Shown piece after piece: positions 5,970 to 62,117 of a stretch of 64,000 nt of DNA. The stretch comes from Minisyncoccia bacterium (GTDB lineage Bacteria > Patescibacteriota > Minisyncoccia > JACQLN01): the NCBI GenBank assembly GCA_049274895.1, contig JBASTM010000022.1, positions 2,424 through 66,423 of the forward strand, given 5' to 3'. The first letter of the stretch is position 1, and the number at the start of each line of letters is the position of its first letter. A model generated the notes under the pieces. That model worked only from the letters and a program-made list of their open reading frames with translations, searched no databases and had not been told where the DNA came from. Position numbers and translations under genes: made by a program.

Positions 5970-5992
5970 CTGCCTGCCTGCCGGCAGGCAGG
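5970..5992. repeat. GC-rich palindrome CTGCCTGCCTGCCGGCAGGCAGG (copy 1 of 3)
   Basis: Perfect inverted repeat. Related copies at 43164-43200 and 47608-47630. Confidence 0.7.
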
Positions 5993-6031
5993 CCCCATGG
6001 AGAAGACGGCATCTACAATAGAGAGGCCTCC

Positions 6032-7027
6032 ATGCAGGCAGTGAGGAGTGATGTTTTTAGAATCATGTTAATAGACGACGTAAAAATAAAAATAAAAGCC
6101 GGGGACGGCGGCCGGGGCGCCGTCGCTTTTAATAAAAACTTAATGAGCTTGGGGCCGGTGGGCGGCGACGGCGGCGACGGCGGCAGTATTTATTTTGAAG
6201 GCGTTTCCAACTTAAACGCCTTGGCCCAATTCAGATACAAAAAAGACATAAAAGTAAAAAACGGCGAAAACGGCAAGCCGCAATTCAACGACGGCGCCGA
6301 CACCGAGGATTTGGTTTTGAAAGTTCCGGTGGGCACGGTTATAAAAAATCTGGACACCAAAGAAACGCGCGAGATCACCAAGATAGGCGAGCGGATATTG
6401 GCCGCGCGGGGCGGACAGGGCGGCAAAGGCAATTTTAAGTTTAGATCTTCGTTAAACACCACGCCGACCCAGTTTCAACACGGCCGCGCGGGCGAATCTT
6501 TCAGAATACGGCTGGAACTTAAGCTTATAGCCGACGTGGGTTTTATCGGGCTGCCTAACGCCGGAAAGTCCAGTCTATTAAACGAGCTGACGCGCGCCCA
6601 AAGCAAGGTAGCCAATTACCCCTTCACCACGTTGGAACCGAACCTGGGGGCGTATTACGAGCTTATTTTAGCCGATATCCCTGGTATAATTGAGGGCGCT
6701 TCGGCCGGCCGGGGATTGGGCCTAAAGTTTTTACGCCACGTGGAGCGCACCAAGATTTTGTTCCACTTGATTTCGGCCGAATCGGAAAATCCGGCCCGGG
6801 ATTACAAAATCATCAGAAACGAACTTAAAACTTACGGCGCGGGCCTGATTAAAAAACAGGAATACCTCTTTTTAACCAAAAACGATCTCGCTACTTCGGC
6901 GGAGTTAAAAAAGAAACTGGCCGTCCTAAAAAAGATAAACAAGAACGCCTCGACTGTTTCCATCCACGACTGGGACAGCTTAGAAAAAGTAAAAAAGATT
7001 CTAAATAGGATTCAAGAAAAGAAATAA
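6032..7027 (+). CDS. obg: GTPase Obg/CgtA
   Basis: Obg fold glycine repeats (GDGGRGAVAF, GGDGGDGG), G-domain GLPNAGKSSLL, PFTTLEPNLG, DIPGIIEGA. The likely true start is MLIDDVKIKIKAGDGG at 6065. Confidence 0.9.
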   Translation: MQAVRSDVFRIMLIDDVKIKIKAGDGGRGAVAFNKNLMSLGPVGGDGGDGGSIYFEGVSNLNALAQFRYKKDIKVKNGENGKPQFNDGADTEDLVLKVPVGTVIKNLDTKETREITKIGERILAARGGQGGKGNFKFRSSLNTTPTQFQHGRAGESFRIRLELKLIADVGFIGLPNAGKSSLLNELTRAQSKVANYPFTTLEPNLGAYYELILADIPGIIEGASAGRGLGLKFLRHVERTKILFHLISAESENPARDYKIIRNELKTYGAGLIKKQEYLFLTKNDLATSAELKKKLAVLKKINKNASTVSIHDWDSLEKVKKILNRIQEKK

Positions 7028-7092: not shown

Positions 7093-7893
7093 CTAGTTGC
7101 CGAATCCGCCGGCGGCCGCCTGGCTGAAGCTGACCCCTCCTTGGCTGGCCCGCACCGCGGACTGGCTGAAGACGTTGAACGCCCGTCGAAGCTCCGAAGG
7201 CGAGTTGCCCGGCGTGAGGATCCAGCGATCCTCAATACCCATCTCCTGGAACACTTTCCGGAAATCGGTGCGCCCGCCGTCGTCGATGCCCATACCGGCA
7301 ATGATGTGGTTCTCGGTGCGGAGCATGTCGCGAACCAACGCCTGAACACTCGAGGGATTCTGGCGTCTCGAGTGCTCATCGGCGCCATCCGTGATGATGA
7401 GGGTCACCGTCCGGCACGGCACGCCGTTGTCCTCGAAGGACTGGGCCTTGGCGAGCACGGTGCCCAACAGCACGACCGACTGGTCGTAGAGCGGTGTTCC
7501 TTGGTCGGGATCATAGTTGTGAGCATCCATCCGCACCGCCTGATCGAGGGGCACGAAGGGATACAGCACGAACCCGTTCAGATACCGGCAGTGGGCGAGA
7601 ATGCCCTCCTTCTGCTTGGAACCGCCGAGCGCGTCGAGGACGGTGTTGTGGCCATCCCTGACATTCTGGGCGTTGCCGGCGAACCTGATGGAACCCGAAT
7701 CGTCGGGCATCATGGTGACCAGTGTGACTTCGCTGGCTTGGACATCGTCGACGTCGATGCCGATTCCCATCTGGATCTGCTCGCCGATGTCGTTGATGTT
7801 GATGAGGCCCGCCGTCTGGGACGACAGCGTTCCCTCGTTCTGAGCGTGGCTCAGCAACGCGGCCACGCTCTGGTTGGTACCAGACTTGCTCAT
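7093..7893 (-). CDS. von Willebrand factor A (vWA) domain protein with MIDAS motif, TerY-like
   Basis: MIDAS DxSxS (MPDDSGS) and downstream ITDG. AAGGAG RBS 8 nt upstream. Last gene of a GC-rich four-gene minus-strand operon. Confidence 0.7.
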   Translation of the reverse strand: MSKSGTNQSVAALLSHAQNEGTLSSQTAGLININDIGEQIQMGIGIDVDDVQASEVTLVTMMPDDSGSIRFAGNAQNVRDGHNTVLDALGGSKQKEGILAHCRYLNGFVLYPFVPLDQAVRMDAHNYDPDQGTPLYDQSVVLLGTVLAKAQSFEDNGVPCRTVTLIITDGADEHSRRQNPSSVQALVRDMLRTENHIIAGMGIDDGGRTDFRKVFQEMGIEDRWILTPGNSPSELRRAFNVFSQSAVRASQGGVSFSQAAAGGFGN

Positions 7894-17777: not shown

Positions 17778-17778
17778 A

Positions 17779-17822
17779 AAACAACATTCCAACATTCTGC
17801 AGAATGTTGGAATGTTGTTTTA
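17779..17822. terminator. bidirectional terminator formed by a 20-bp perfect palindrome
   Basis: AACAACATTCCAACATTCTG|CAGAATGTTGGAATGTTGTT followed by TTTT and flanked upstream by AAAAA. Lies between convergent genes. Confidence 0.75.
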
Positions 17823-17833
17823 GGAATGTTGTT

Positions 17834-18793
17834 TTAGGTTAATGTCTGACCAACTATGCAGTTGTAGCCGTTAAGGAATTCGGCCGAGGTTAGGATTTTG
17901 GAACCCTCCGGCTGGAGTTTGGTTATTTTGACCGCGCCGGAGGCGCAGGCGATAAGGAGATTTTTGGACAAGTCGGTAAAAATTTCCCCCGGCTGTTTTT
18001 GCCGAATATGTTGAACATCGGATGTTCCACATTTTTCTATTTGGATGAGTTTGAGGCGGATGCTGGCGCCGGATTTGTTTTTGAAGAAAGTATATACGCC
18101 TGGCCATTTTAGGTAAGCCCGCCAGAGGTTATAGACTTCTTCGGCCGACATTTTTTGCCAATCCACGCGGCCATTTTCTTTTTTAATCAACTTGGTAAAA
18201 GTGGCCTCGGTATGATTTTGCTCGTGGGGTTTTATTTGACCGGAAACATATTCAGGCAAATCATGGATGATCATCTCTGCACCTATTGCAGCCAGTTTCG
18301 GTTCCAAGGTCAGGTAGGTCTCATCGGCACCGACCAAAAAGGCCTTCTGCGAAATCACCGGCCCGTGATCCACTTTTTCATCTATCACCATCAGCGAGAC
18401 TCCGGTTTCGGTTAGACCTTGGACTAAAGTTGCTTGGATGGGCGAGGGACCCCGCAGTTTGGGCAGGAGTGATGGGTGGACGTTGACCGTTCCGAACTTA
18501 GGAATATTGATAACCTCTAAGGGTAATATCTGACTGTAAGCCACCACAACCATAACATCGGGATTGAGAGCGGCTAGATCAGACTTTATATCTTTGATAG
18601 CTGCGGGCGTGGTTGTTTTTAGATTCAACTCTCGGGCCGCTTGGGCCACGGCAGAGTCGGTCAATTTTTGGCGGCGTCCAGCCGGTTTAGCCGGTTCGGA
18701 AACAATTAAAATAATATCCCAATCGGTTTGAGAAGCGATGGTTTTTAATATCGGCACGGCGAACTCCCCGGTTCCAGCAAAAACGATTCTCAT
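17834..18793 (-). CDS. fmt: methionyl-tRNA formyltransferase
   Basis: N-terminal MRIVFAGTGEFAVP formyltransferase fold and a C-terminal domain. Directly downstream of def. Confidence 0.9.
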   Translation of the reverse strand: MRIVFAGTGEFAVPILKTIASQTDWDIILIVSEPAKPAGRRQKLTDSAVAQAARELNLKTTTPAAIKDIKSDLAALNPDVMVVVAYSQILPLEVINIPKFGTVNVHPSLLPKLRGPSPIQATLVQGLTETGVSLMVIDEKVDHGPVISQKAFLVGADETYLTLEPKLAAIGAEMIIHDLPEYVSGQIKPHEQNHTEATFTKLIKKENGRVDWQKMSAEEVYNLWRAYLKWPGVYTFFKNKSGASIRLKLIQIEKCGTSDVQHIRQKQPGEIFTDLSKNLLIACASGAVKITKLQPEGSKILTSAEFLNGYNCIVGQTLT

Positions 18794-23338: not shown

Positions 23339-24982
23339 ATGGAACTTTTCGCCATTTCTGGGCTTATAAACGGGATTGCCTCTTTAAGTTTTGCCCTATT
23401 AATTATCTATAAAAATTGGCGTGATGCTATAAACCGCGTCTTCTCTCTTTTAATGCTAGCCGTAGGTATATGGTCGGTTGGTTATTGGCAATGGCTTTCC
23501 AGTGTTTCGCACGACCCAGCTTTATTCTGGATAAGAATATTATCGGTTGGATCCACACTGGTACCTGTTTTTTATTTGCACTGGATCTTGTTATTACTAG
23601 AACGGAAAAATATCCGCAGACTCCTTATTTCCACGTATATATTATTATCTTTAATACTTTCTTTAACTTTCTCTAATCTTTTTATTAAAGATGTAATACC
23701 AAAATCTTTTTTCCCGTTCTGGCCAGAACCAGGTTTAATATACCATTTTTATCTTTTTGTGGTTTATTTCGTTTTGGTTACCTATGCATTTTGGTTACTG
23801 GTCAAAACATACAGAATTTCCAATCAAGACAAAAAAGGGCAGATATTCTACGTGATTTTGGGATCAATCGCCGGTTTTGGTGGGGCATTAACTAATTTCT
23901 TTTTATGGTACGACATTTCCATACCGCCTTTCGGTAATTTTTTTGTATCCGCTTTCCCTGTTTTTTTTGGCTATGCCATGTTGAAACATAAATTATTTAA
24001 CTCTAAAGTTGTAGCTACGGAACTGCTTACATTTTCCATATGGATATTCCTGTTAATACGGACTTCTACTTCCATAACTGTACAAGACTTTGTTATCAAT
24101 GGCGGTGTATTTATACTAACTGTCTTTGCCGGAGTATTCTTGATTCGCAGTGTCATCAGAGAGGTGGAGCAGAGGGAGAAATTGGAGAGTTTAACGACAC
24201 AATTAGAATCAGCCAACACCGAACTTAAGCGCGTAGATGCGGCTAAATCGGAATTCGTGTCCATAGTTTCGCACCAGTTGCGGACGCCGCTGACGGCGGT
24301 CAAGGGCTATATTTCCATGATGATCGAAGGCACCTACGGCAAATTGCAAGAGGTTCAAAGCGCCACTTTGCAAAAAGTGTTCCAGTCGGCCGAGCACTTG
24401 ATCACTTTAGTGAACGACCTTTTGAACATGAATCGCATAGAGGAGGGGAGAATTATTTATGAATTCAAGGCGGTGGACTTGGCCCAGATGGTGGATGACG
24501 CCGTTTTTGAATTCAAAAATATGGCCGGGGATAAAAAATTGAATCTGACCTGGATCAAACCCCACGGCCTCCCCCTGGCCTGGGCCGACGCCGACAAAAT
24601 CCGCCAGGTGGTGGTTAACTTTATAGACAACGCCATCAAATACACGGCGGCCGGCGGCGTCAATGTTTTGTTAAAATTGGAAAACGATTACCTGGTCTAC
24701 CAGGTGAGCGACACCGGCGTGGGCATGGGGCCCGAAGAAAAAGCGCGGCTGTTCAAAAAATTTGAGCGCGGCGAGGGCGGCCGCTTGATGTATACCGGCG
24801 GCACCGGCTTGGGCCTATATGTGGCCAAAATGATGACCGAAGCCCACCACGGCGAAATATCCGGCGTCTCGGAAGGTAAAGACAAAGGCAGCACCTTCGG
24901 CATAAAAATACCCACCGAGGAATTCGCCAAGAAAAACAACGTCAACCAGCAACCTCCACAACCAATCACGCCATCCAGTTGA
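23339..24982 (+). CDS. sensor histidine kinase (multi-TM input domain)
   Basis: About 7 TM helices, HisKA H-box SHQLRTPLTAVKGY, HATPase_c motifs (NAIKYT, DTGVGM, GTGLGLYV). Confidence 0.85.
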   Translation: MELFAISGLINGIASLSFALLIIYKNWRDAINRVFSLLMLAVGIWSVGYWQWLSSVSHDPALFWIRILSVGSTLVPVFYLHWILLLLERKNIRRLLISTYILLSLILSLTFSNLFIKDVIPKSFFPFWPEPGLIYHFYLFVVYFVLVTYAFWLLVKTYRISNQDKKGQIFYVILGSIAGFGGALTNFFLWYDISIPPFGNFFVSAFPVFFGYAMLKHKLFNSKVVATELLTFSIWIFLLIRTSTSITVQDFVINGGVFILTVFAGVFLIRSVIREVEQREKLESLTTQLESANTELKRVDAAKSEFVSIVSHQLRTPLTAVKGYISMMIEGTYGKLQEVQSATLQKVFQSAEHLITLVNDLLNMNRIEEGRIIYEFKAVDLAQMVDDAVFEFKNMAGDKKLNLTWIKPHGLPLAWADADKIRQVVVNFIDNAIKYTAAGGVNVLLKLENDYLVYQVSDTGVGMGPEEKARLFKKFERGEGGRLMYTGGTGLGLYVAKMMTEAHHGEISGVSEGKDKGSTFGIKIPTEEFAKKNNVNQQPPQPITPSS

Positions 24983-25080
24983 ACCTACAAAAACATCATA
25001 AAACACATCCGACTCTAAATAACGATCTGTTAATCAACATAAGCCAAATCGACTAACTAATAAGTATTAATCAATATAAA

Positions 25081-25127
25081 ATTATAACATTAAGTTCACG
25101 ATCGTATGGTAAATGTTATAATTTTAT
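25081..25127. repeat. conserved ~46-bp element, copy 1 (TTATAACATT-N-CACGATCGTATG-N-AATGTTATAA)
   Basis: Inverted arms ATTATAACATT/AATGTTATAAT around a CGATCG-containing core. Each arm reads TGTTATAAT (extended -10) outward. Confidence 0.7.
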
Positions 25128-25165
25128 GTACATCTTAATTAATAATTAAGTATATAAAGACGGGC

Positions 25166-25693
25166 TTATAATTCGTGAAGTGTTCCTTTCTTGCTGACGC
25201 TGACGATATGAATTTTATCCTCGAGTTTAAAGTCTTTAATGGATTTTATAAATTCTTCGGGCAGCGGTGCGTAGCCCAACCAAACGCTTTTTTGTAACTG
25301 TTCATATTCCAGAGCAACCAATTCATATCTAATCCAGTCCCGTTTTTTTCTATTGGACTCCGGAATATCATACATTACCAATCTAGGAATTCCGTCTCGT
25401 TGCGCCGGGCTCATCAAGTTTTGGTGATACTTAGTTTTTTTATGCCCAATTTTGGTTAGGGACCATCTAGATTTATGGCCGCGGCAATCCTTTACCACCA
25501 ATCCTTCTTTTTTAAGATGATTCAGTAAGGCCGAAAAGGTCGGCCGAGAAAACTCATAACCTGTTGGTAAACCCAAAACTTGCCGCCAAACGCGACTTTC
25601 CGCACGGTTCCTCGGAAGCATTGAATCTAGAGTCAATCCTCCCGACTCGGCCAGCTTTTCTAAAATTAAATTGGTTAATGATTTTCTATTCAT
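25166..25693 (-). CDS. hypothetical DNA-binding protein (N-terminal winged-helix-like; C-terminal region of unknown fold)
   Basis: The N-terminal ~80 aa are HTH-like. The C-terminal IPRLVMYDIPESNRKKRDWIRYELVALEYEQLQKSVWLGY loosely recalls the Cas2/VapD pattern, which is speculative. Flanked on both sides by the 46-bp element. Confidence 0.5.
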   Translation of the reverse strand: MNRKSLTNLILEKLAESGGLTLDSMLPRNRAESRVWRQVLGLPTGYEFSRPTFSALLNHLKKEGLVVKDCRGHKSRWSLTKIGHKKTKYHQNLMSPAQRDGIPRLVMYDIPESNRKKRDWIRYELVALEYEQLQKSVWLGYAPLPEEFIKSIKDFKLEDKIHIVSVSKKGTLHEL

Positions 25694-25741
25694 TATAAAA
25701 CTAGTCTCTAGTCTACTGTATATTATTTTTACAATTTTATA

Positions 25742-25788
25742 AATTATAACATTATTCTCACGATCGTATGATATTTGTTATAAATTTG
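25742..25788. promoter_or_regulatory. conserved ~46-bp element, copy 2; likely divergent promoter/operator for the wHTH gene and aspS
   Basis: AATTATAACATTATTCTCACGATCGTATGATATTTGTTATAAATTT. Outward-facing TGTTATAA(A/T)T boxes point toward both flanking gene starts. Confidence 0.55.
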
Positions 25789-25879
25789 AATAGTTCTTAA
25801 ATTCTTAAATATAGCTTAAATTGTCAAATGGTTGTATTTATTGCTACGATGCTGTGGAAAATGTTAAAATAAATGTTAT

Positions 25880-27271
25880 ATGGAACGGATTTTGATAGCT
25901 AAAACCCCTCAAAAAAAGGGAGATAAGGTTAAAGTTTGCGGCTGGGTTTGGACGCGGCGGGATCACGGCAAGCTTATTTTTATTGATGTTAAGGACAGCA
26001 GTGGGATTCTGCAGTGCGTTTTTACGCCCGGCGACGCCGGACTGCATAAATTGGGCGACACTTTACGGACGGGCTTTGTGGTGGAACTGACGGGCCAAAT
26101 CGCGGAGAGGCCCAAAGGCATGGTCAATGCCGAAATTCCCACAGGGGAGATTGAACTCCAAGTCTCAAACCTGATTGTGTTAAACGAATCACCCACACCT
26201 CCTTTTGCTTTAGATACCGACGGTCTGGAAATAGGGGAAGATGTGCGAATGAAGTACCGCTACTTAGATCTGCGGCGCGATCGGTTGCAAAAAAATATTC
26301 GCCTGAGGCATCAGCTGATCCAATTCATCCGCGAGTGGTTGGCCGCCAAAGATTTTACCGAAATAGAAACGCCGATCTTGACCAAATCCACACCCGAAGG
26401 CGCGCGCGACTACGTGGTGCCCTCGCGGCTCCAGCACGGCAAGTTTTACGCTTTGCCCCAAAGCCCCCAGCAATACAAGCAATTATTGATGGTGGCCGGC
26501 TTTGAAAAATATTTTCAAATAGCGAGATGTTTTAGAGATGAAGATACCCGCGGCGACCGCCAGCCGGAATTCACCCAGCTGGATTTGGAAATGTCGTTCG
26601 TGGATAGGGAAGACATAATGGAACTGAATGAAAAATTGCTGATTGATTTGGTTAAACAAGCGACTCCGTCCAAAAAAATCCAGGATCTGCCCTTCCCGCG
26701 GCTGACTTACCAAGAGGCGATGACAAAATACGGCACCGACCGGCCCGATCTCCGGCGCGACAAAAACGATCCCGATCTTTTGGCTTTCGCTTGGATAATT
26801 GATTTTCCATTTTTTGAAAAAACCAAAGATGGTTTGTGGACTTTTACGCACAATCCATTTTCCCGGCCCAAAGATGAACATATTGGCTGGTTGATGAACA
26901 AAGAAAAAATAGGCGAGATATTAACTACCCAATATGATGTGGTGCTTAACGGTTTTGAAATCGGCGGCGGCAGTATTCGCAATCATCAGCCCGAACCGCT
27001 AAAAAAGGTTTTTGAAATTATGGGTTTTAGCGAAGACAGGATCGTCAATAATTTTGGCCATATGTTAACGGCCTTAAGCTACGGCGCTCCGCCTCACGGC
27101 GGCATTGCTTGGGGTTTGGACAGATTAACTGCCATTTTGGCGGGCGAACCTAATATCCGTGAAGTCTTGGCTTTTCCCAAAACCGGTGATGGCCGCGATT
27201 TGATGATGGCCGCGCCTTCGGAAATCAGCCAAGAACAGTTAAAAGAACTCGGCCTTTCAATTAAAAAATAA
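25880..27271 (+). CDS. aspS: aspartate--tRNA ligase (bacterial-type catalytic core, lacking the GAD insertion domain)
   Basis: N-terminal OB fold, QSPQQYKQLLM, motif 2 FRDEDTRGDRQPEFTQLDLEMSF, motif 3 GAPPHGGIAWGLDRL. The 463 aa length implies no GAD domain. Confidence 0.85.
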   Translation: MERILIAKTPQKKGDKVKVCGWVWTRRDHGKLIFIDVKDSSGILQCVFTPGDAGLHKLGDTLRTGFVVELTGQIAERPKGMVNAEIPTGEIELQVSNLIVLNESPTPPFALDTDGLEIGEDVRMKYRYLDLRRDRLQKNIRLRHQLIQFIREWLAAKDFTEIETPILTKSTPEGARDYVVPSRLQHGKFYALPQSPQQYKQLLMVAGFEKYFQIARCFRDEDTRGDRQPEFTQLDLEMSFVDREDIMELNEKLLIDLVKQATPSKKIQDLPFPRLTYQEAMTKYGTDRPDLRRDKNDPDLLAFAWIIDFPFFEKTKDGLWTFTHNPFSRPKDEHIGWLMNKEKIGEILTTQYDVVLNGFEIGGGSIRNHQPEPLKKVFEIMGFSEDRIVNNFGHMLTALSYGAPPHGGIAWGLDRLTAILAGEPNIREVLAFPKTGDGRDLMMAAPSEISQEQLKELGLSIKK

Positions 27272-29724: not shown

Positions 29725-30771
29725 ATGGACGAAACAACTTTCCAAATAGTACGAATACTGGCTTTGGCTTTCGGAGCTTTCGTTTTGTCTATGGTCTTAA
29801 CGCCGTGGTGGACCAATATTCTTTATAAATACCGCTTGGGCAAGCAAATTCGCACCGAGGGCGCGCCGGTATTTGCCGCTTTGCACAAAGGCAAAGAGGG
29901 TACGCCCACTATGGGCGGCGTCATCATCTGGCTGACTTTGCTAACGTTGATCTTGATTACGGTTTTAGCCGAAAAGTTTTTTCCCAATAGTCTGGCCGCC
30001 CAACTTAATTTTTTGTCTCGGCCTCAAACACTATTGCCGCTGGGCGTGCTTGTTTTCTCGGCCATCATTGGGCTGGGAGACGACTTACTGGGAGTTTTCA
30101 GGATCGGCTCTAACGGCGGCGGACTAAAAATGAGGCACCGTCTGGCGCTCTATACCGCAGTGGCTATAGTCGGCGCGCTCTGGTTTTATTATAAACTAGA
30201 TTGGACTGTGGTTAAGGTGCCTTTTTTGGGTGTATTTGATATCAACGGCTGGTATATACCTTTTGCCATATTCATAATCGTGGCTACCTCGTTTTCGGTC
30301 AACGAATCCGACGGCTTGGACGGTCTGGCCGGCGGCTTGATGCTAACCGCTTTTGCTGGCTACGGCCTGGTGGCTTTTTTTGAGGCGAGGTACGATCTAG
30401 CAGTCTTTTGCGCGGTGATTGTGGGGGCTTTACTCTCCTTTTTGTGGTTTAATATCCACCCAGCCAGATTTTTTATGGGCGACACCGGAGCTATGCCGCT
30501 CGGCGTAACTTTGGCTGTTATCGCCCTTCTGACTAACGCGGCCTTGGTTTTGCCGTTTCTGGCTTTCGTGCCGATGGTGGAATCTATATCGGTGATTGTG
30601 CAGGTGCTAAGTAAAAAATTAAGAAACGGAAAAAAGGTTTTTCTCTCGGCTCCCATTCATCACCATTTCCAAGCCAAAGGCTGGCCCGAAACTAAAGTTA
30701 CCGAAAGATTCTGGATCATCTCCTCGGTTATGGCCGCCATCGGCATTATTGTTCAACTCCTCGGTAAATAA
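29725..30771 (+). CDS. mraY: phospho-N-acetylmuramoyl-pentapeptide transferase
   Basis: Signature NESDGLDGLAGG and the HHHF motif, with multi-TM topology. The ORF continues upstream to 29560 through a hairpin-rich leader, so the start was set at MDETTFQ. Confidence 0.85.
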   Translation: MDETTFQIVRILALAFGAFVLSMVLTPWWTNILYKYRLGKQIRTEGAPVFAALHKGKEGTPTMGGVIIWLTLLTLILITVLAEKFFPNSLAAQLNFLSRPQTLLPLGVLVFSAIIGLGDDLLGVFRIGSNGGGLKMRHRLALYTAVAIVGALWFYYKLDWTVVKVPFLGVFDINGWYIPFAIFIIVATSFSVNESDGLDGLAGGLMLTAFAGYGLVAFFEARYDLAVFCAVIVGALLSFLWFNIHPARFFMGDTGAMPLGVTLAVIALLTNAALVLPFLAFVPMVESISVIVQVLSKKLRNGKKVFLSAPIHHHFQAKGWPETKVTERFWIISSVMAAIGIIVQLLGK

Positions 30772-31511
30772 TGTTGAACATCCGATGTTCAACAATCATA
30801 TATGTTTAGACACCCCGCTATAACCACTACAGGAGAGTATCTACACATCTATAATCGTGGCAATGATAGACAAACAATATTCCACGATGAGCGTGATTGG
30901 ATAAGATTTTTGTTCCTAATCTTACATTTGCAATCCAAGGTGGTTTTTGAGAACATTGGTCGTCATGTCAGTTACTTTGTTAAACATCGGATGTTCAACA
31001 CTGAAGAAAGCATATCAGATATTTTACGAACTCGATTAGTTGAGCTTACTACATTTACTCTTATGCCCAACCACTTTCATTTGGTGATAGTCGGATTGAA
31101 AGATAGAGGAGTATCAGAATACATGCGCCGTGTACAAGATGCTTACACTAAATACTACAATACCAAACACAAAAGAACTGGACACCTGTTACAAGGACCC
31201 TATCAAGCTGTACACATAAAAAACAACAACCAACTCTTACACCTATCGGCTTATATACACAAAAACTCTAGGGAACTGCCGACTTGGAAAAATAAAGAAC
31301 ATTTATATCCATGGTCCAGTTATCAAGACTATCTAAAAAACCGCTGGGGAGAGCTTCTAAACAGTAGTATAATCTCAGAACAATTTAACAAACCAGAAGA
31401 TTATAAAATCTTCGTGAAAAATAGTAGTGCCAAAGAATCACTACCAGATAATTGTCTAATTGATTATTTTGATTAAACGTCGAATGTTGAACATCCGATG
31501 TTCAACATTCG
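30772..31511 (+). mobile_element. RAYT/IS200-like Y1 transposase unit flanked by REP-like palindromes
   Basis: The transposase ORF is bounded by near-identical palindromes TGTTGAACATCCGATGTTCAACA at 30772-30794 and 31481-31511. Inserted between mraY and a convergent gene. Confidence 0.65.
30802..31476 (+). CDS. REP-associated tyrosine transposase (RAYT) / IS200-like Y1 HUH transposase
   Basis: YLHIYNRGNDRQTIFHDERDWIRFLFLIL ... TLMPNHFHLVI (HUH motif) ... conserved Tyr region (GPYQAVHI). Confidence 0.75.
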   Translation: MFRHPAITTTGEYLHIYNRGNDRQTIFHDERDWIRFLFLILHLQSKVVFENIGRHVSYFVKHRMFNTEESISDILRTRLVELTTFTLMPNHFHLVIVGLKDRGVSEYMRRVQDAYTKYYNTKHKRTGHLLQGPYQAVHIKNNNQLLHLSAYIHKNSRELPTWKNKEHLYPWSSYQDYLKNRWGELLNSSIISEQFNKPEDYKIFVKNSSAKESLPDNCLIDYFD

Positions 31512-34949: not shown

Positions 34950-36056
34950 ATGACTAGTCGAAAAATACTGCTGTGCGGCGGGGGAACGGGCGGGCATGTT
35001 CTGCCTTTGGTGGCGGTGGCCAGAGCCATTAAAAAAATTGCGCCGGAAACCAAAATATATTTCGCCGGGCCGGAGGAGTTTTCTTTAGACTCTTTAAGGC
35101 AAGAAGGCGTAATTGTTAAAAAAATAATTGCCGCGGGCAAGTTGCGGCGGTATTTTTCGTGGCTTTATATTTGGGAACTGATAAAACTGCCTTTGGCCTT
35201 GGTGCAGTCTTTTTTTGTGGTGCTGGCCATAAACCCCGACGTCGTCTTAGGCAAGGGGAGTTATGGCAGCATCCTGCCGGTAATAGCAGCCAAGATGTTG
35301 TTTAAGAAAACAATCATCCATGAGTCTGATGCCGTGCCGGGTCTCGCCAACAGATTCTTATCTCATTTAACCGATAACGTCGCCGTTGCTTTTGAGGAAA
35401 CTAGAAAGTTTTTCCCCAATAAAAATGTATACGTGGTTGGCAACCCGGTACGGCTTAGATATCTTGGTTTGACCAAAAAGGAAGCTCAAAAAATTCTTGA
35501 TCTGCCTATTAACGAAAGTATACCGAGCTTGCTGCAGCAAGCTCGGTATACGATCTTTATCAGCGGAGGATCGCAGGGCGCCCAGAAGATAAACAAGGTT
35601 ATTTTGGAATCATTAACCAGTCTGCTAGAAAAATATCTGGTGATTTGGAGCACCGGCACCGCCAATTACAAATTTATCAAAAATTCGGTATCCGACAACG
35701 TCAACTTAAAGATTGAACCCTTCCTAGGTGAAAGGGAATTGGCCGCCGCTTACGCGTTATGCGACGTAGCTGTGGGCCGGGCCGGGGCTGGCACTATTTT
35801 TGAACTGGCCGCCTTCGCCAAGCCAGCTGTCTTAATTCCCCTGGAAAGAAACGGCGGCGACCAGCCGGTCAACGCTCAAGTTTATATTAAGGCCGGTGCG
35901 GCCATTTTATTAAAAGAATCAGAATTAAACCCAGAAACTCTACTCGCCAAAATCGACGCAACATTAAACCACAGCGACGAATTAAGCCGCAACGCCAGAA
36001 AATTTGCTAAAATAGAGGCAGGCGAACAATTGGCTAAAATCCTATTAGACCTATGA
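34950..36056 (+). CDS. murG: undecaprenyldiphospho-muramoylpentapeptide beta-N-acetylglucosaminyltransferase
   Basis: KILLCGGGTGGHVLPLVAVA N-terminal motif and a GT28 C-terminal domain. Confidence 0.9.
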   Translation: MTSRKILLCGGGTGGHVLPLVAVARAIKKIAPETKIYFAGPEEFSLDSLRQEGVIVKKIIAAGKLRRYFSWLYIWELIKLPLALVQSFFVVLAINPDVVLGKGSYGSILPVIAAKMLFKKTIIHESDAVPGLANRFLSHLTDNVAVAFEETRKFFPNKNVYVVGNPVRLRYLGLTKKEAQKILDLPINESIPSLLQQARYTIFISGGSQGAQKINKVILESLTSLLEKYLVIWSTGTANYKFIKNSVSDNVNLKIEPFLGERELAAAYALCDVAVGRAGAGTIFELAAFAKPAVLIPLERNGGDQPVNAQVYIKAGAAILLKESELNPETLLAKIDATLNHSDELSRNARKFAKIEAGEQLAKILLDL

Positions 36057-43097: not shown

Positions 43098-43163
43098 GAC
43101 ATAGGCGGGATTGCGCTTTACAGCCAATCGCTCCGCTCTTGGATAAAACGGGAACAATCAACC

Positions 43164-43200
43164 CTGCCGGCAGGCAGGTAGGCGCACTAGCCTGCCTGCC
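43164..43200. repeat. GC-rich palindrome family copy 2 (CCTGCCGGCAGGCAGG...CCTGCCTGCC)
   Basis: Shares the GCCGGCAGGCAGG core with 5970-5992 and 47608-47630. Sits in a 230-bp GC-rich spacer between tRNA-Ser and htpX. Confidence 0.6.
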
Positions 43201-43331: not shown

Positions 43332-44267
43332 CTAAACTTTCAACCCCTGCAAAGCCTTTATGCGTTCTTTGAGGGGAGGATGAGTCGAGAAGATACGGGC
43401 GAGCCACGGCATTCCCCGGTCAGCAGACCGCCCTGAGCTTGTCGAAGGGTCGCCATCTTTGTCGGCTCCGAACGGGTTTTCAAAAAACAAATGGGCGGTG
43501 GCGTTGGTGGCGGTGCGGATGGGCCGGCCGTGGGCTGATATTTTTTTAAGCGCCGAAACCAAACCCTCGGGGTAACGAGTCAACAACACCGCCGAAGCGT
43601 CGGCCAAAAATTCGCGCTTGCGCGAAATGGCCAAGTGAATCAGCGAAGCGAAAATCGGGGCTAAAATCGAAAGCACTATTCCCACCAAAATTAAAACACC
43701 CGCCGATCCCCTGTTATCGTTGTCGTGACCGCGACCGAACCACATACTTCGCATAAACATATCCGCCAAAATAGACACAAAGCCCACCAGCACTACCGCC
43801 ACGGTGGAAACCAGCATGTCGCGGTTGCCGATATGCGAAAGTTCGTGGGCCAGAACTCCTTCCAGTTCGGAACGATCCAGCTTTTCCAGCAAACCCGACG
43901 TGACCGCCACCACCGCGTGTTGGGGATTGCGGCCGGTGGCGAAAGCGTTGGGCGCGGGGTCGTTAATTACAAAAAACCGCGGCATGGGCAAACCGGCGGC
44001 AATAGTCAGGTTTTCCAGCACCCGATACAACTCTGGATTTGATTTTAATTCTACCGGCTGGGCTTTATGAAGCGCGAGAACAATCTTGTCGGAATACCAG
44101 TAGCTTATAAAATTCATTACTATACTAAAAACCACGGCGAAATAAAGAATAGAAGGATCGCCGTAGATCCGACTCACCACCCAACCGATACCAATAACCA
44201 AGCCAAAAAACACTACCATCAACAGCCATGTTTTTCGGATATTCGCATCCTTATGGCCATATATGTT
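43332..44267 (-). CDS. htpX: zinc metalloprotease HtpX (M48)
   Basis: HELSHIGNRD (HExxH) plus TM helices. The ORF extends to 44327, but those extra codons are encoded by a terminator hairpin, so the start was set at MNIYGH (44267). Confidence 0.8.
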   Translation of the reverse strand, partial: NIYGHKDANIRKTWLLMVVFFGLVIGIGWVVSRIYGDPSILYFAVVFSIVMNFISYWYSDKIVLALHKAQPVELKSNPELYRVLENLTIAAGLPMPRFFVINDPAPNAFATGRNPQHAVVAVTSGLLEKLDRSELEGVLAHELSHIGNRDMLVSTVAVVLVGFVSILADMFMRSMWFGRGHDNDNRGSAGVLILVGIVLSILAPIFASLIHLAISRKREFLADASAVLLTRYPEGLVSALKKISAHGRPIRTATNATAHLFFENPFGADKDGDPSTSSGRSADRGMPWLARIFSTHPPLKERIKALQGLKV

Positions 44268-44296
44268 CATACAAAGAAAGTATATACTAAAACATA

Positions 44297-44327
44297 AAAA
44301 AATGAAGACTGGCTCCCCAGTCTTCAT
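44297..44327 (-). terminator. rho-independent terminator of the small-protein operon, or a start-codon-sequestering hairpin of htpX
   Basis: Minus-strand AUGAAGACUGG-GGAG-CCAGUCUUCAU (11-bp perfect stem) followed by UUUUUUUAU. Confidence 0.6.
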
Positions 44328-45146: not shown

Positions 45147-45707
45147 TTAGAATTTTACCGTAACTGGCTCTTGAGCGGGAGAGTTATCATCAAGATCAAA
45201 AAATTCACGTTTTTTAAAACCAAACATCCCGGCGATAATAAGCGATGGGAAAGAATCCACCATCACATTAAGATCACGCACATTGCCGTTATAGAACCGC
45301 CGGGCCGATTGGATTTTGTTTTCGGTGTCGGCCAGTTCCCTCTGCAAATCCAAAAAATTGGCGTTGGCTTTAAGCTCGGGATAATTTTCGGAAACCGCGA
45401 ACAAGGTCTTGAGCGTATTAGAAAGCATATTTTCCTTGGCCGCTTTTTCGTTGGGATCATGCGCGCCCATCGCGGCCGAACGGGCCTGGGTTACGTTTTC
45501 AAACACCGATCGCTCGTGACCCATATATCCCTTTACTGTTTCTATTACATTGGGAATTAAATCATACCGGCGTTTTAACTGCACCTCAATATCGGAAAAG
45601 GCCTCGTCTATGCGGGTACGCAAAGTTACCAAACGGTTAAAGGCGTAGATAATCCAAAGGACTATTACACCACCCACGCCTATTAGAATCCAAGTGGTTA
45701 AAGTCAT
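45147..45707 (-). CDS. lemA: LemA-family membrane protein
   Basis: N-terminal TM helix plus LemA signature (NRLVTLRTRIDEAFSDIEVQLKRRYDLIPN, LFAVSENYPELKAN). Confidence 0.85.
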   Translation of the reverse strand: MTLTTWILIGVGGVIVLWIIYAFNRLVTLRTRIDEAFSDIEVQLKRRYDLIPNVIETVKGYMGHERSVFENVTQARSAAMGAHDPNEKAAKENMLSNTLKTLFAVSENYPELKANANFLDLQRELADTENKIQSARRFYNGNVRDLNVMVDSFPSLIIAGMFGFKKREFFDLDDNSPAQEPVTVKF

Positions 45708-45780: not shown

Positions 45781-45828
45781 AAATTATAACAAACAACATA
45801 CGATCGTGAAAATAATGTTATAATTTAA
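45781..45828. promoter_or_regulatory. conserved ~46-bp element, copy 3 (reverse orientation); candidate lemA promoter/operator
   Basis: The reverse complement AATTATAACATTATTTTCACGATCGTATGTTGTTTGTTATAATTT matches copy 2 at about 42 of 46 positions. Confidence 0.6.
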
Positions 45829-47607: not shown

Positions 47608-47630
47608 TCCTGCCTGCCGGCAAGCAGGCG
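47608..47630. repeat. GC-rich palindrome family copy 3 (CCTGCCTGCCGGCAAGCAGGCG) in the groES-groEL spacer
   Basis: Near-identical to 5970-5992, including the preceding CATTCC. Confidence 0.6.
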
Positions 47631-47655: not shown

Positions 47656-47946
47656 CTATTCTAAAATCGCAAGTATATCGTCCTCTCTCGCAATCAAGTA
47701 TTCCTTACCTTCAATTTTAATTTCACTGGGACCGTATTTGGTAAATAAAACCACATCGCCTTTTTTGACGGCGGGTTTGATGAGCTTGCCGTCATCATAC
47801 TTGCCCGGCCCAACCGCCAAAACTTTACCTTGTTCCGGCCGCTCTTTATCCACCGTATCCGGCAGATATATGCCCGACTTGGTTTTTTCTTCTTTAGACA
47901 TGGGTTCTATCAGCACCCGGTCGGATAATGGTTTGATCTTGATCAT
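47656..47946 (-). CDS. groES: co-chaperonin GroES
   Basis: Cpn10 pattern IKPLSDRVLIE...GIYLPDT...GKVLAVGPG. Confidence 0.95.
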   Translation of the reverse strand: MIKIKPLSDRVLIEPMSKEEKTKSGIYLPDTVDKERPEQGKVLAVGPGKYDDGKLIKPAVKKGDVVLFTKYGPSEIKIEGKEYLIAREDDILAILE

Positions 47947-47957
47947 ATTTATAAAAT

Positions 47958-47984
47958 TATCACTCTAACTATGTGATTGATAAT
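47958..47984. promoter_or_regulatory. degenerate CIRCE-like inverted repeat TTATCAATC-N9-GAGTGATAA (read on the minus strand) upstream of groES
   Basis: Arms match the CIRCE consensus TTAGCACTC-N9-GAGTGCTAA at 7/9 and 8/9 positions. Lies just downstream of a TTGACT-17-TAACAT promoter-like sequence. Confidence 0.45.
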
Positions 47985-48031
47985 GTTAGCAACTACCTAA
48001 AAGGGAGTCAAGGGCCTTACGGGCCAAATAA

Positions 48032-48068
48032 AAACCTCCGGACTTTGATTCGCCGGAGGGAGAAAGCT
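48032..48068 (-). terminator. rho-independent terminator ending a ~280-nt structured 3' region of the GC-rich gene
   Basis: Minus-strand CCTCCGG-N11-CCGGAGG followed by TTTTTATTT. Confidence 0.65.
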
Positions 48069-48327
48069 GGGACCGGGGAAGCACGAGGATGAGGACCCTC
48101 ACACCTTGTCGAAGGGTGCAAGAGTTGCGTGTTCTCGTAACCTCCCCGGCCCAGTGGGCTGGAGTAAAGGAGAAAGGAAAACTCCAACCCCTCAACCGGC
48201 TTGTTTGCCGCCATCAAACCCCTAGCGCTTACCTGGGGAGGGCAAGGATCCGGTGGGGAATCCGGAGGCAAAAACTTCCGGCTGAGTTTGAAGAACTATT
48301 TCAATTATACATACCCTATCAACTCTG

Positions 48328-52416: not shown

Positions 52417-53823
52417 ATGAGGACTATAGTTAAAAAACTGGCCAAAATGCCATCCCAGCCCGGAATTTACTTGTTTAAGAACAGTTCCGGAGAAATCATA
52501 TACATAGGCAAATCGGGCCATCTAAAAAACCGCGTGCGAAGCTACTTCTCCCACTTCGCTAAAGTCTTCGATCCTGAGGTCTCAGACCGAAGGGCTTCGC
52601 GGGACAAGCAAAAAGTAGCTAGATTTTTTAGTCCAACAAAAAATAAAATGCTCCAAGAAATTGCCGATGTGGAAATTATTAAAACCGAATCCGAAATAGC
52701 CGCGCTGATTAAAGAATCCGAACTGATTAAAAAACATAAGCCCAAATTTAACGTTCTGATGCGCGATAGCAAAAACTATCTCTATGTGGGATTTTCCAAA
52801 GAAGAATTCCCCAAAATAATCTTAACCCATCAACCCCAATTCTTAACTACCCACTACAAACTACTCACTACTCACTACATCGGCCCCTTCACCGACGGCA
52901 CCGCCGTTAGAAAATCCCTGCATATTTTGCGCGAGATATTTCCCTACTGCACCTGCAAGCAGAAACATAATGTTAAATGCCTCAACGGCCACCTGGGCCG
53001 GTGTTTGACTTTCTGCTGCCTCAAAAAGACCAGCGCTATACCTCGAGCATACGATCGTAAGCTCGCGGTATTAGAACGGTACAAAGGAAACATCAGGGCT
53101 ATAAAATCAATTCTCTCCGGGCGAAGCCAGGTTTTGCTTAAAGAATTAAAAAAAGAAATCAAACAAGCCATAAAACTCCAAAATTTTGAAAATGCCCAAG
53201 AATTAAAAAATAAAATCATGAGTTTGGACGAAGTGCTTAAACACGCCCGCGTGCTGACCGAAAAACCAGAGGTCCAATCGCCCGCTATCTTCAAAGACGA
53301 CCGGCCGGACTTCAAATTGCTGGGGTTAAAATCCAATCCACAAAGAATAGAAACATACGACATCTCTAATCTCCATGGCCAGGCAGCGGTCGGCTCTATG
53401 GTGGTTTTTGAACTCAAAAATGATGGATCGTATCGGCCCAACAAAAACGAATACCGTAAGTTCAAAATCAAAACCGTCTCCGGCAGCAATGACCCGGCTA
53501 TGCTGGCCGAGGTAATCAAGCGCCGCCTAAACAACAATTGGCCATGGCCACAATTGATTATTGTTGACGGCGGCCGGACACAGCTCAACGCCGCCTTAAA
53601 ATCGCTGGGTTCCAAAAAAATCAGAATTATTGGCTTGGCTAAAAGACTGGAGGAGATTTATCTGCCGGAAAGGCCGGAACCGGTGCTGGCCCAAAAATTC
53701 GGCCAGAGTTTGAAACATCTTTTCCAGGCCATCCGCGACGAGGCCCATCGTTTCGCTTTAAGCTACCACCATAAACTGCGCCATAAAACCATATCCGGAA
53801 CAGATTTGACAAAAAAGAGTTGA
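52417..53823 (+). CDS. uvrC: excinuclease ABC subunit C (short form lacking the C-terminal HhH2 domain)
   Basis: GIY-YIG (GIYLFKNSSGEIIYIGKSGHLKNRVRSYF), a UVR domain, and an RNase H-like endonuclease region (IETYDISNLHG). Ends at 468 aa. Confidence 0.8.
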   Translation: MRTIVKKLAKMPSQPGIYLFKNSSGEIIYIGKSGHLKNRVRSYFSHFAKVFDPEVSDRRASRDKQKVARFFSPTKNKMLQEIADVEIIKTESEIAALIKESELIKKHKPKFNVLMRDSKNYLYVGFSKEEFPKIILTHQPQFLTTHYKLLTTHYIGPFTDGTAVRKSLHILREIFPYCTCKQKHNVKCLNGHLGRCLTFCCLKKTSAIPRAYDRKLAVLERYKGNIRAIKSILSGRSQVLLKELKKEIKQAIKLQNFENAQELKNKIMSLDEVLKHARVLTEKPEVQSPAIFKDDRPDFKLLGLKSNPQRIETYDISNLHGQAAVGSMVVFELKNDGSYRPNKNEYRKFKIKTVSGSNDPAMLAEVIKRRLNNNWPWPQLIIVDGGRTQLNAALKSLGSKKIRIIGLAKRLEEIYLPERPEPVLAQKFGQSLKHLFQAIRDEAHRFALSYHHKLRHKTISGTDLTKKS

Positions 53824-61924: not shown

Positions 61925-61960
61925 TAATCGTATACCGAACATACGATCGTAGATTCGGTA
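61925..61960. repeat. variant copy of the CGATCG-core element (GTATACCGAA-CATACGATCGTAG-ATTCGGTATAC)
   Basis: Same ATACGATCGTA core as the 46-bp element but with different 10-bp inverted arms. Lies in the ychF-rpmA spacer. Confidence 0.5.
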
Positions 61961-62117
61961 TACTTTTGACATACAGATTTGGACTTGGTAGGATAGTGGG
62001 GCGATTTAAAAACGCTAAGTGGTATTTGGTTATATGGCCCCAGTAGCAGAACCTCGAAGACTCGGTTCACTACGGGGCTCATATTTTTAGATAAAATTTA
62101 GAAAATTTTATAAAAAT

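Follow-up and report, generated by a model that had tools for sequence, protein, structure and literature searches.

A stretch of 64,000 nucleotides from a Minisyncoccia bacterium (assembly GCA_049274895.1, contig JBASTM010000022.1, positions 2,424–66,423), referred to here as the window, carries a gene for a small winged helix-turn-helix (wHTH) protein with a copy of a 42-bp palindromic element on either side of it and a third copy elsewhere. The question raised by this locus is whether the element is an operator for the protein encoded between its copies, a promoter or RNA signal in its own right, or a repeat of the mobile kind. To our knowledge, transcription control is almost wholly unexplored in the Patescibacteria (Candidate Phyla Radiation), and LexA was the only regulon described for them in the literature searched. 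The repeated palindrome is real, non-random and conserved phylum-wide. The answer that we favour, at little better than even confidence, is that a truncated regulator of the PaaX family would use it as its cognate operator, which would overlap promoters and serve autoregulation together with a small regulon.

Copies of the element in the window

The element is a symmetric module, ATTATAACA-N8-ACGATCGT-N8-TGTTATAAT, of which the window has three copies, located as a first-pass annotation of the sequence had reported (Table 1). Copy 3 is reversed in orientation, judging by the asymmetry of its spacers. Identity is 91% over 47 nt between copy 2 and the reverse complement of copy 3, 86% over 49 nt between copies 1 and 3, and approximately 85% (direct reading) between copies 1 and 2; the copies are therefore alike, at a slightly lower identity than the earlier estimate of about 42 of 46 positions. 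No fourth copy was found in the window with up to five mismatches allowed. The window has a G+C content of 47.5%, with very A+T-rich intergenic regions. Both ACGATCGT (0.6 expected) and TGTTATAAT (0.5 expected) occur five times in it, and chance can be excluded for the element because no shuffled sequence reached either count. The shorter CGATCG occurs 11 times, close to the expectation from base composition, and an over-representation of the HIP1 type was rejected.

The gene contexts are also those first described. Copy 1 sits where a histidine kinase gene and the wHTH gene converge, between their 3' ends and 46 nt beyond the stop codon of the wHTH gene. Copy 2 lies in the divergent intergenic region between the wHTH gene and aspS, 49 nt from the start of the former and 95 nt from that of the latter. 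Copy 3 follows groEL by ~72 nt and precedes lemA by ~75 nt, in the gap from the stop of the former to the start of the latter.

The PaaX-like protein

The nearest relatives of the 175-aa protein encoded between copies 1 and 2, by sequence and by modelled fold, are PaaX repressors. It matches the Pfam family PaaX_M (PF20803), the central Cas2-like domain of PaaX, with 54.4 bits against a cut-off of 24 bits (E = 1.3e-14) and, below threshold, the Cas2 family (E = 4e-4); a match to the PaaX N-terminal domain was not reported in this Pfam search. Weak PaaX and Cas2 matches were obtained from NCBIfam, and a weak match to TIGR01573. In an AlphaFold2 model (predicted local distance difference test score 82.7) the wHTH domain (residues 1–95) is followed by a ferredoxin-like domain, and the best Foldseek matches of this model in the PDB were the PaaX-family structures 3L09 and 8A39, followed by winged helices of the MarR, PadR and ArsR types. 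A 17-member family profile aligned to E. coli PaaX (8A39 residues 54–112, E = 4.8e-4) across the recognition helix, the wing and the WDGKW motif, and also touched Cas2 chains in the PDB. Two Cas2-type motifs are retained, YDI (here FDIPE) and Q-SV (here QKSV). The protein ends at residue 175, past the Cas2-like domain, and has no PaaX C-terminal effector (phenylacetyl-CoA) domain. There are no paa catabolic genes nearby, the neighbours being the histidine kinase gene and aspS and, in relatives, grpE-dnaK, cysS, uvrD and ksgA.

The PF20803 domain is present in all 68 of 68 homologues, and the homologues of the window's proteins derive from metagenome-assembled genomes (MAGs) of Parcubacteria/Patescibacteria. 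The family is large, with 1,713 representatives at 50% identity (E <= 1e-10); among the 150 that score best, nearly all are 170–215 aa in length. The window holds only one PaaX_M-type gene.

Distribution of the element across genomes

One genome per GTDB species was scanned for the exact pattern ATAACA-N8-ACGATCGT-N8-TGTTAT, which has 20 fixed bases and for which approximately one chance match is expected. This census returned 75 loci, nearly all of them in MAGs of Patescibacteria and many in genomes with multiple copies, showing that the element is not limited to the window. The hosts include Parcubacteria/Paceibacterota, Wolfe-, Giovannoni- and Uhrbacteria, and the density is ~1 copy per 45–50 kb (MAG JAGLUP01, for example, has 11 exact copies in 544 kb). 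In total, 94 instances of the element were printed, 83 of them independent. Most copies are intergenic (65 of 76 assessable, or 85%, using crude open reading frame calls). Looser inspection indicated that the outermost positions of the core vary symmetrically, as in NCGATCGN. There were no matches to the element in 2.9 million viral contigs.

Exact matches were also found in three MAGs labelled Ignavibacteriota, Melioribacter and Gammaproteobacteria (L047, L054 and L067). Those in L054 and L067 have the flanks typical of the element and may represent binning contamination, while that in L047 is within an open reading frame and may be due to chance. On one contig of JAGLUP01 (JAGLUP010000002, locus L059), two copies with identical extended flanks (6527–6574 and 7330–7377) bracket a 125-aa open reading frame that is not PaaX-like, which suggests either the duplication of a larger segment or a second bracketed gene. 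Phylogenetic footprinting with relatives 96% identical to the window (L077–L080) was uninformative, as the intergenic regions are ~90% identical throughout.

Linkage and co-diversification of protein and palindrome

Among the 75 loci selected by the element, at least 14 genomes have a PaaX-like gene next to it, and in at least 10 the gene has a copy on each side. A second test selected loci by the protein only. Metagenome contigs were scanned with a subfamily alignment, the 17-member profile having no stretch conserved enough for such a scan, and 15 loci with a full-length orthologue were obtained, with 40–88% identity to the query. At 14 of these 15 the gene has an element no more than a few tens of bases away, and at 12–13 there is one on each side. 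The upstream copy is 12–40 nt from the start codon in nearly all orthologues, the downstream copy is 3–30 nt past the stop codon, and flanking on both sides was seen in almost every lineage.

Palindromes accompany the gene also where the element itself has diverged. Four of four further relatives from the window's clade, fetched by exact protein look-up, have GATC-centred palindromes on both sides of the gene, with arms that have drifted to TGTTAACA, TTTCAACA or ATATACTCAT. For more distant members of the family, represented by 65 loci, the density of long near-perfect palindromes is 34-fold higher within 120 nt of an end of the gene (1.64 versus 0.048 per kb). These flanking palindromes are 34–48 bp long and their core type tracks the protein clade, the centres that follow the protein tree being ACGGCCGT, GCGGCCGC, GCGATCGC, TACGATCGTA, CCATGG, CATATG and TAGCTA. 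Inspection of the recognition-helix residues against the arm sequences gave no simple correlation. The PaaX-like family and its flanking palindromes thus co-diversify; of the evidence at hand, this speaks most strongly for recognition of the element by the protein. The suggestion made in the first-pass annotation, that the wHTH protein is the cognate binder, is strongly supported by its fold, by the linkage at 14 of 15 loci and by the co-variation between clades, binding itself being a prediction from sequence.

Symmetry and compensatory change

Outside the window's clade the whole 40–44 bp of the element is usually a perfect palindrome. All eight spacer pairs are complementary in 26 of the 83 independent instances, and at least six in 54, where ~7 would be expected. 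Every spacer pair has undergone between 17 and 38 double changes, and the covariation score of the spacers is 0.373, as compared to 0.143 for shuffled data (reached in 0 of 500 shuffles) and 0.08–0.13 for slid partners. Several perfectly symmetric spacer variants can even occur within one genome, such as CCTCCTTC, CCTCATTC and TTACATTC in CAYIWX, and the same was seen in CAYRXZ. Two explanations remain for the upkeep of this symmetry, namely that the hairpin or cruciform form of the element matters, or that quasi-palindromes are repaired by template switching, which holds the arms identical. Such repair is an established mutational process, which we would here be extending to the element.

Promoter, terminator and RNA signals

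A promoter scan of copy 1 found TTCACG-16-TATAAT with an upstream TG on the plus strand (25095–25122), directed antisense into the PaaX-like gene, and in copy 3 the same arrangement of TTCACG-16-TATAAT and TG is found on the minus strand, directed toward lemA. Many genomes have a spacer with TTG at its end, which gives a TTGACG core, and because this core stands 16 nt from the TATAMT arm the element may be read as a symmetric two-way promoter. In other cases -35 boxes are placed a little beyond the element; the register thus varies, as is the case for repressor operators. Only 12–40 nt separate the upstream copy from the start codon, too little for a promoter apart from the element, so that the promoter of the PaaX-like gene must overlap it. 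An extracytoplasmic function-type promoter (AAC...CGT) was rejected by direct reading, as the spacing is 14 nt and not 16–17 nt.

The window contains two tRNAs, and Rfam 15 gave only chance-level matches at the element at both gathering and permissive thresholds. A scan for intrinsic terminators around all copies found no site. The stems of the window's elements are A-U rich and their hairpins weak (-7 to -13 kcal/mol); their spacers lack complementarity, and shuffled sequences fold as well as copy 2 does. On the sense strand, G-U and A-C pairs are equally frequent (19 versus 19), giving no indication of selection for an RNA hairpin. An RNA hairpin is not favoured by the sequence data, given the lack of a G-U preference and of terminator-like sites, the non-complementary spacers in the window and the fold of copy 2.

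Gene neighbourhoods and candidate targets

The neighbours of the element suggest a theme of protein quality control. The order PaaX-like–[element]–grpE-dnaK, with cysS divergent upstream, is recurrent, as is uvrD–[element]–PaaX-like–[element]–ksgA; the head of grpE-dnaK is the position of hrcA in Firmicutes. The order groEL–[element]–lemA is found in the window and in three other genomes (L031, L057 and L074), whose PaaX-like proteins are only ~30% identical to that of the window. The element is also found upstream of htrA in four genomes and between def and fmt in two. The gene aspS, a neighbour also in L046/L081 and L077, is a possible target of copy 2 or a mere neighbour.

A repeat resembling the controlling inverted repeat of chaperone expression (CIRCE), TTATCAATC-N9-GAGTGATAA, is present at 47957–47983, directly upstream of groES (47656–47946, minus strand), with three mismatches to the consensus and none expected by chance. 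HrcA-type control of groESL may therefore operate in this organism, as judged from this repeat; no hrcA was seen among the genes checked. The possibility that the element is itself CIRCE was rejected, as it has no match to TTAGCACTC-N9-GAGTGCTAA and the window's only CIRCE-like site is this other sequence.

Table 1. Coordinates of the element, the related palindromes and the principal genes in the 64-kb window
Feature	Position	Strand	Description
Copy 1	25079–25125	.	Module 25081–25122; arms 25081–25089 and 25114–25122; core ACGATCGT 25098–25105
PaaX-like gene	25166–25693	-	175 aa; wHTH and Cas2-like domains; proposed binder of the element
Copy 2	25741–25787	.	Module 25743–25784; arms 25743–25751 and 25776–25784 (outer arm TGTTATAAA); core 25760–25767
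aspS	25880–27271	+	Pfam tRNA-synt_2; divergent from PaaX-like gene
IS200-like/RAYT gene	30802–31476	+	224 aa; Pfam PF01797 (Y1_Tnp); HUH motif NHFHLV
M48/HtpX-like peptidase gene	43332–44327		After lemA; Pfam Peptidase_M48
lemA	45147–45707	-	Pfam LemA (E = 1.5e-59); downstream of copy 3, candidate regulated gene
Copy 3	45781–45827	.	Module 45783–45824; arms 45783–45791 and 45816–45824; core 45800–45807
34-bp near-palindrome ATACCTCGAGCATACGATCGTAAGCTCGCGGTAT	53038–53071	.	Inside uvrC; second arm family
34-bp palindrome GTATACCGAACATACGATCGTAGATTCGGTATAC	61930–61963	.	After ychF; core ACGATCGT in common with the element, second arm family

The palindrome–gene–palindrome unit as a possible cassette

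The neighbours of the palindrome–gene–palindrome unit vary by lineage (histidine kinase/aspS, cysS/grpE, uvrD/ksgA, TIM, rplK, dnaE and rpiB). The unit is inverted between the window, together with its 96% relative L077, and L046/L081, a 68% relative, while the orientation of the histidine kinase gene and aspS is kept. The segment was compared over window positions 23339–27271, and the inversion fits recombination between the two palindromes.

A parallel architecture is present elsewhere in the window. The IS200-like gene, which belongs to the transposases associated with repetitive extragenic palindromes (REP; the transposases are termed RAYT), is bracketed by the palindrome AATGTTGAACATCcGATGTTCAACA at 30770–30797 and 31482–31509, with further copies inside the gene itself (30977–31000) and inside fmt (18008–18033). 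A gene bracketed by its own palindrome, with dispersed copies, is the classical REP/RAYT arrangement, and on account of this parallel a comparable nature for the element stays alive as an explanation. The element likewise has a gene flanked by two copies and intergenic dispersal. An HUH Y1 transposase domain (PF01797) is not among the matches of the PaaX-like protein, which are of the PaaX_M/Cas2-like types only.

A second palindrome family and other repeats

The first-pass annotation had listed two variants of the element, inside uvrC and at 61925–61960. Both are real and have the same ACGATCGT core with other arms, but they appear to form a separate family, with a third member inside murG (35518–35551) whose core is CTGCAG. 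The arms of this second family are GTATACC/GGTATAC, the TATACC/GGTATA portion lying 3 nt nearer to the centre than the arms of the 42-bp element, and the centres are interchangeable (CTGCAG or CGATCG); two of the three members are within coding genes, murG and uvrC. From these differences in arms, spacing and murG core, the three 34-bp palindromes are best classed by sequence as a second family and not as degenerate copies of the element. In L162, a 54% relative, the PaaX-like gene is bracketed by ATATACTCAT...TACGATCGTA palindromes, and for this reason the second family may be linked to the same PaaX-like protein. The window holds no second PaaX_M gene to partner the other palindrome families.

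Further repeats were observed in the window. A perfect 44-bp palindrome, AAAACAACATTCCAACATTCTGCAGAATGTTGGAATGTTGTTTT (17778–17821), spans the entire intergenic space where the ABC-3 permease and fmt genes converge, and has partial relatives at 1342–1390 and 1680–1728. A G+C-rich palindrome, CCTGCCTGCCGGCAGGCAGG, is present in three intergenic copies (5973–5993, 43163–43183 and 47609–47629), one of them between groES and groEL and one near a tRNA gene. Upstream of the groES promoter there is a G+C-rich stretch of ~270 nt (48000–48270, minus strand) that has no convincing open reading frame and no Rfam match even at E <= 1; it could be an undescribed structured RNA.

Interpretation

If the element is the operator of the PaaX-like protein, the outer ATAACA/TGTTAT boxes, ~30 bp apart, would each be contacted by one winged-helix domain of a dimer, with the dimerised Cas2-like domains over the CGATCG centre. 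The site would overlap promoter elements, with the TGTTATAAT arms acting as extended -10 elements here and the TTGACG core as the -35 element in many relatives. Occupation of copy 2 would repress the PaaX-like gene itself, and occupied sites elsewhere would repress lemA-htpX in this genome and grpE-dnaK and htrA in relatives. Copy 1, past the stop codon, may be a second autoregulatory site or have a looping or insulating role. What is inferred in this scheme is the binding itself, the repressive effect, the signal or effector involved and the function of sites at gene ends.

A number of observations weigh against this proposal. Placement of the intergenic copies is blind to gene orientation (40 tandem, 13 divergent and 12 convergent), and gene ends adjoin the copies as often as gene starts do, with a median distance of 32 nt to the ends and 59 nt to the starts. 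The outward extended -10 arms described in the first-pass annotation are plausible, given the matches in copies 1 and 3 and the TTGACG cores elsewhere, but show no bias toward starts (-10-like in 34 of 66 arms that face gene starts versus 28 of 65 that face gene ends, P = 0.38). Duplex recognition by one protein does not predict compensatory symmetry of the spacers, even within single genomes, and relocation and inversion of the unit fit poorly with a plain operator. The grpE, cysS and aspS "targets" are mostly just neighbours of the PaaX-like gene, which leaves the independent evidence for a regulon thin. The CIRCE-like repeat near groES counts against the PaaX-like protein having taken the place of HrcA, and such a replacement is for that reason not claimed. 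Finally, the Cas2-like domain, with its retained YDI and Q-SV motifs, may have a nuclease role.

Many of these observations would be accommodated if the copies were hairpin or cruciform repeats of the REP/RAYT kind, dispersed or maintained by a cognate structure-specific binder or nuclease, with the unit being a cassette and any regulation of neighbours incidental. We consider this, the main rival reading, rather unlikely as a whole, even though much is consistent with it: a palindrome on each side of the gene in almost every lineage, the downstream one close behind the stop codon; the changing neighbours of the unit and its inversion relative to L046 between fixed flanking genes; perfect palindromy with compensatory changes inside single genomes; the orientation-blind placement between genes; the rapid diversification of the palindromes with protein clade; and the retained Cas2 motifs, together with a true RAYT of the same architecture in the window. 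Against it, the protein falls outside the HUH/Y1 enzymes and has repressors as its nearest relatives, copies number tens per genome and not hundreds, and the same positions (groEL/lemA, htrA) are occupied where the PaaX-like proteins are only ~30% identical. The window's non-complementary spacers, the fold of copy 2, which is no better than random, and the lack of viral-contig matches also speak against it. A broader form of the idea, which we regard as unlikely, is that the small wHTH-Cas2-like proteins of Patescibacteria (~1,700 clusters at 50% identity) and their flanking 34–48-bp perfect palindromes constitute an unrecognised class analogous to REP/RAYT but built on the Cas2 fold. If this were true, the protein would recognise or process an extruded hairpin or cruciform with a C-G-closed loop of GATC, GGCC or similar, and would act on its own cassette by maintaining, inverting or relocating it, with copies being seeded at the boundaries of genes; the compensatory symmetry within genomes, the orientation-blind distribution and the inversion of the cassette between the window and L046 would then be explained.

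It is quite improbable, in our view, that the element is independent of the protein and conserved as a core transcription signal, be it a symmetric bidirectional sigma-70 promoter or a bidirectional terminator or RNA hairpin. The TGTTATAAT arms with TTCACG/TTGACG at 16 nt give 10 of 12 consensus matches, the A-rich 5' and T-rich 3' flanks resemble those of bidirectional terminators, and many copies occupy the entire gap between gene ends. Such a signal would, however, leave the invariant CGATCG centre, the strict symmetry and the near-obligate linkage to one protein family unexplained; moreover, the quality of the -10 is independent of whether a gene start follows, the hairpins are weak, no terminator-like site was detected by the scan and the sense strand has no G-U bias. 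The first-pass annotation had also put forward a mobile cassette resembling a miniature inverted-repeat transposable element (MITE), non-autonomous in nature, as the element is palindromic and present in several copies, one of which lies between convergent genes. This can be set aside as very improbable: copies are few (three in the 64-kb window, with ~1 per 50 kb elsewhere), their positions are kept across deep lineages, the viral contigs yielded no match, no target-site duplications were visible in the flanks of the 94 printed instances, and there is no longer element body.

The pairing of this protein with its palindromes was not described in the literature searched, which covered Patescibacteria in combination with PaaX, Cas2-like proteins, CIRCE or palindromic motifs. 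It would provide a phylum-wide pair of cis element and trans factor that is defined by sequence and has candidate targets in protein quality control (grpE-dnaK, htrA and lemA-htpX). A truncated PaaX/Cas2-like family with co-diversifying, bracketing palindromes could be using these as operators, as REP-like structural repeats, or as both. The strict maintenance of dyad symmetry by compensatory change is unusual for an operator and makes the element a good case for studying how palindromes stay perfect.

Comparison with known systems

Several lineages resemble the HrcA/CIRCE system in that a PaaX-like gene, preceded by an inverted repeat, leads grpE-dnaK, and further sites adjoin groEL, lemA-htpX and htrA; unlike in that system, the fold of the protein is unrelated to HrcA and the element has no match to the CIRCE half-sites. 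With Cas2 and CRISPR repeats there is a likeness in the fold and motifs of the C-terminal domain, which has weak matches to Cas2 in Pfam, TIGR01573 and the PDB, and in a partner DNA that is a repeat of ~36–46 bp with dyad symmetry. There is, however, no array, no Cas1 and no spacers, and the resemblance is one of domain ancestry only. As with REP/RAYT, a single gene lies between two cognate palindromes, copies are dispersed between genes, and protein and palindrome diversify together. The differences are that the PaaX-like protein lacks an HUH/Y1 domain, that copies are few and that distant lineages have them at conserved positions; the palindromes, unlike REPs, are loopless and have conserved outer boxes and a conserved centre.

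The closest comparison is with PaaX of E. coli and Pseudomonas, which is homologous in its wHTH and central Cas2-like domain (PaaX_M, 8A39/3L09, the WDGKW alignment). PaaX represses its own promoter and binds TGATTC-N27-GAATCA, and this autorepression works by occluding RNA polymerase, as recorded in a review (PMC9493321). The ATAACA-N24-TGTTAT arrangement of the element is comparable in geometry and overlaps promoter-like sequence, with two inverted hexamers ~30 bp apart, as compared to ~33 bp in the PaaX operator. The protein described here is shorter (175 aa), is without the phenylacetyl-CoA-sensing C-terminal domain and without nearby paa genes, keeps the Cas2-type FDIPE and QKSV motifs, and belongs to Patescibacteria. 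Its element also differs from the PaaX operator in having a conserved CGATCG centre, in being often a perfect palindrome, and in occurring on both sides of the gene.

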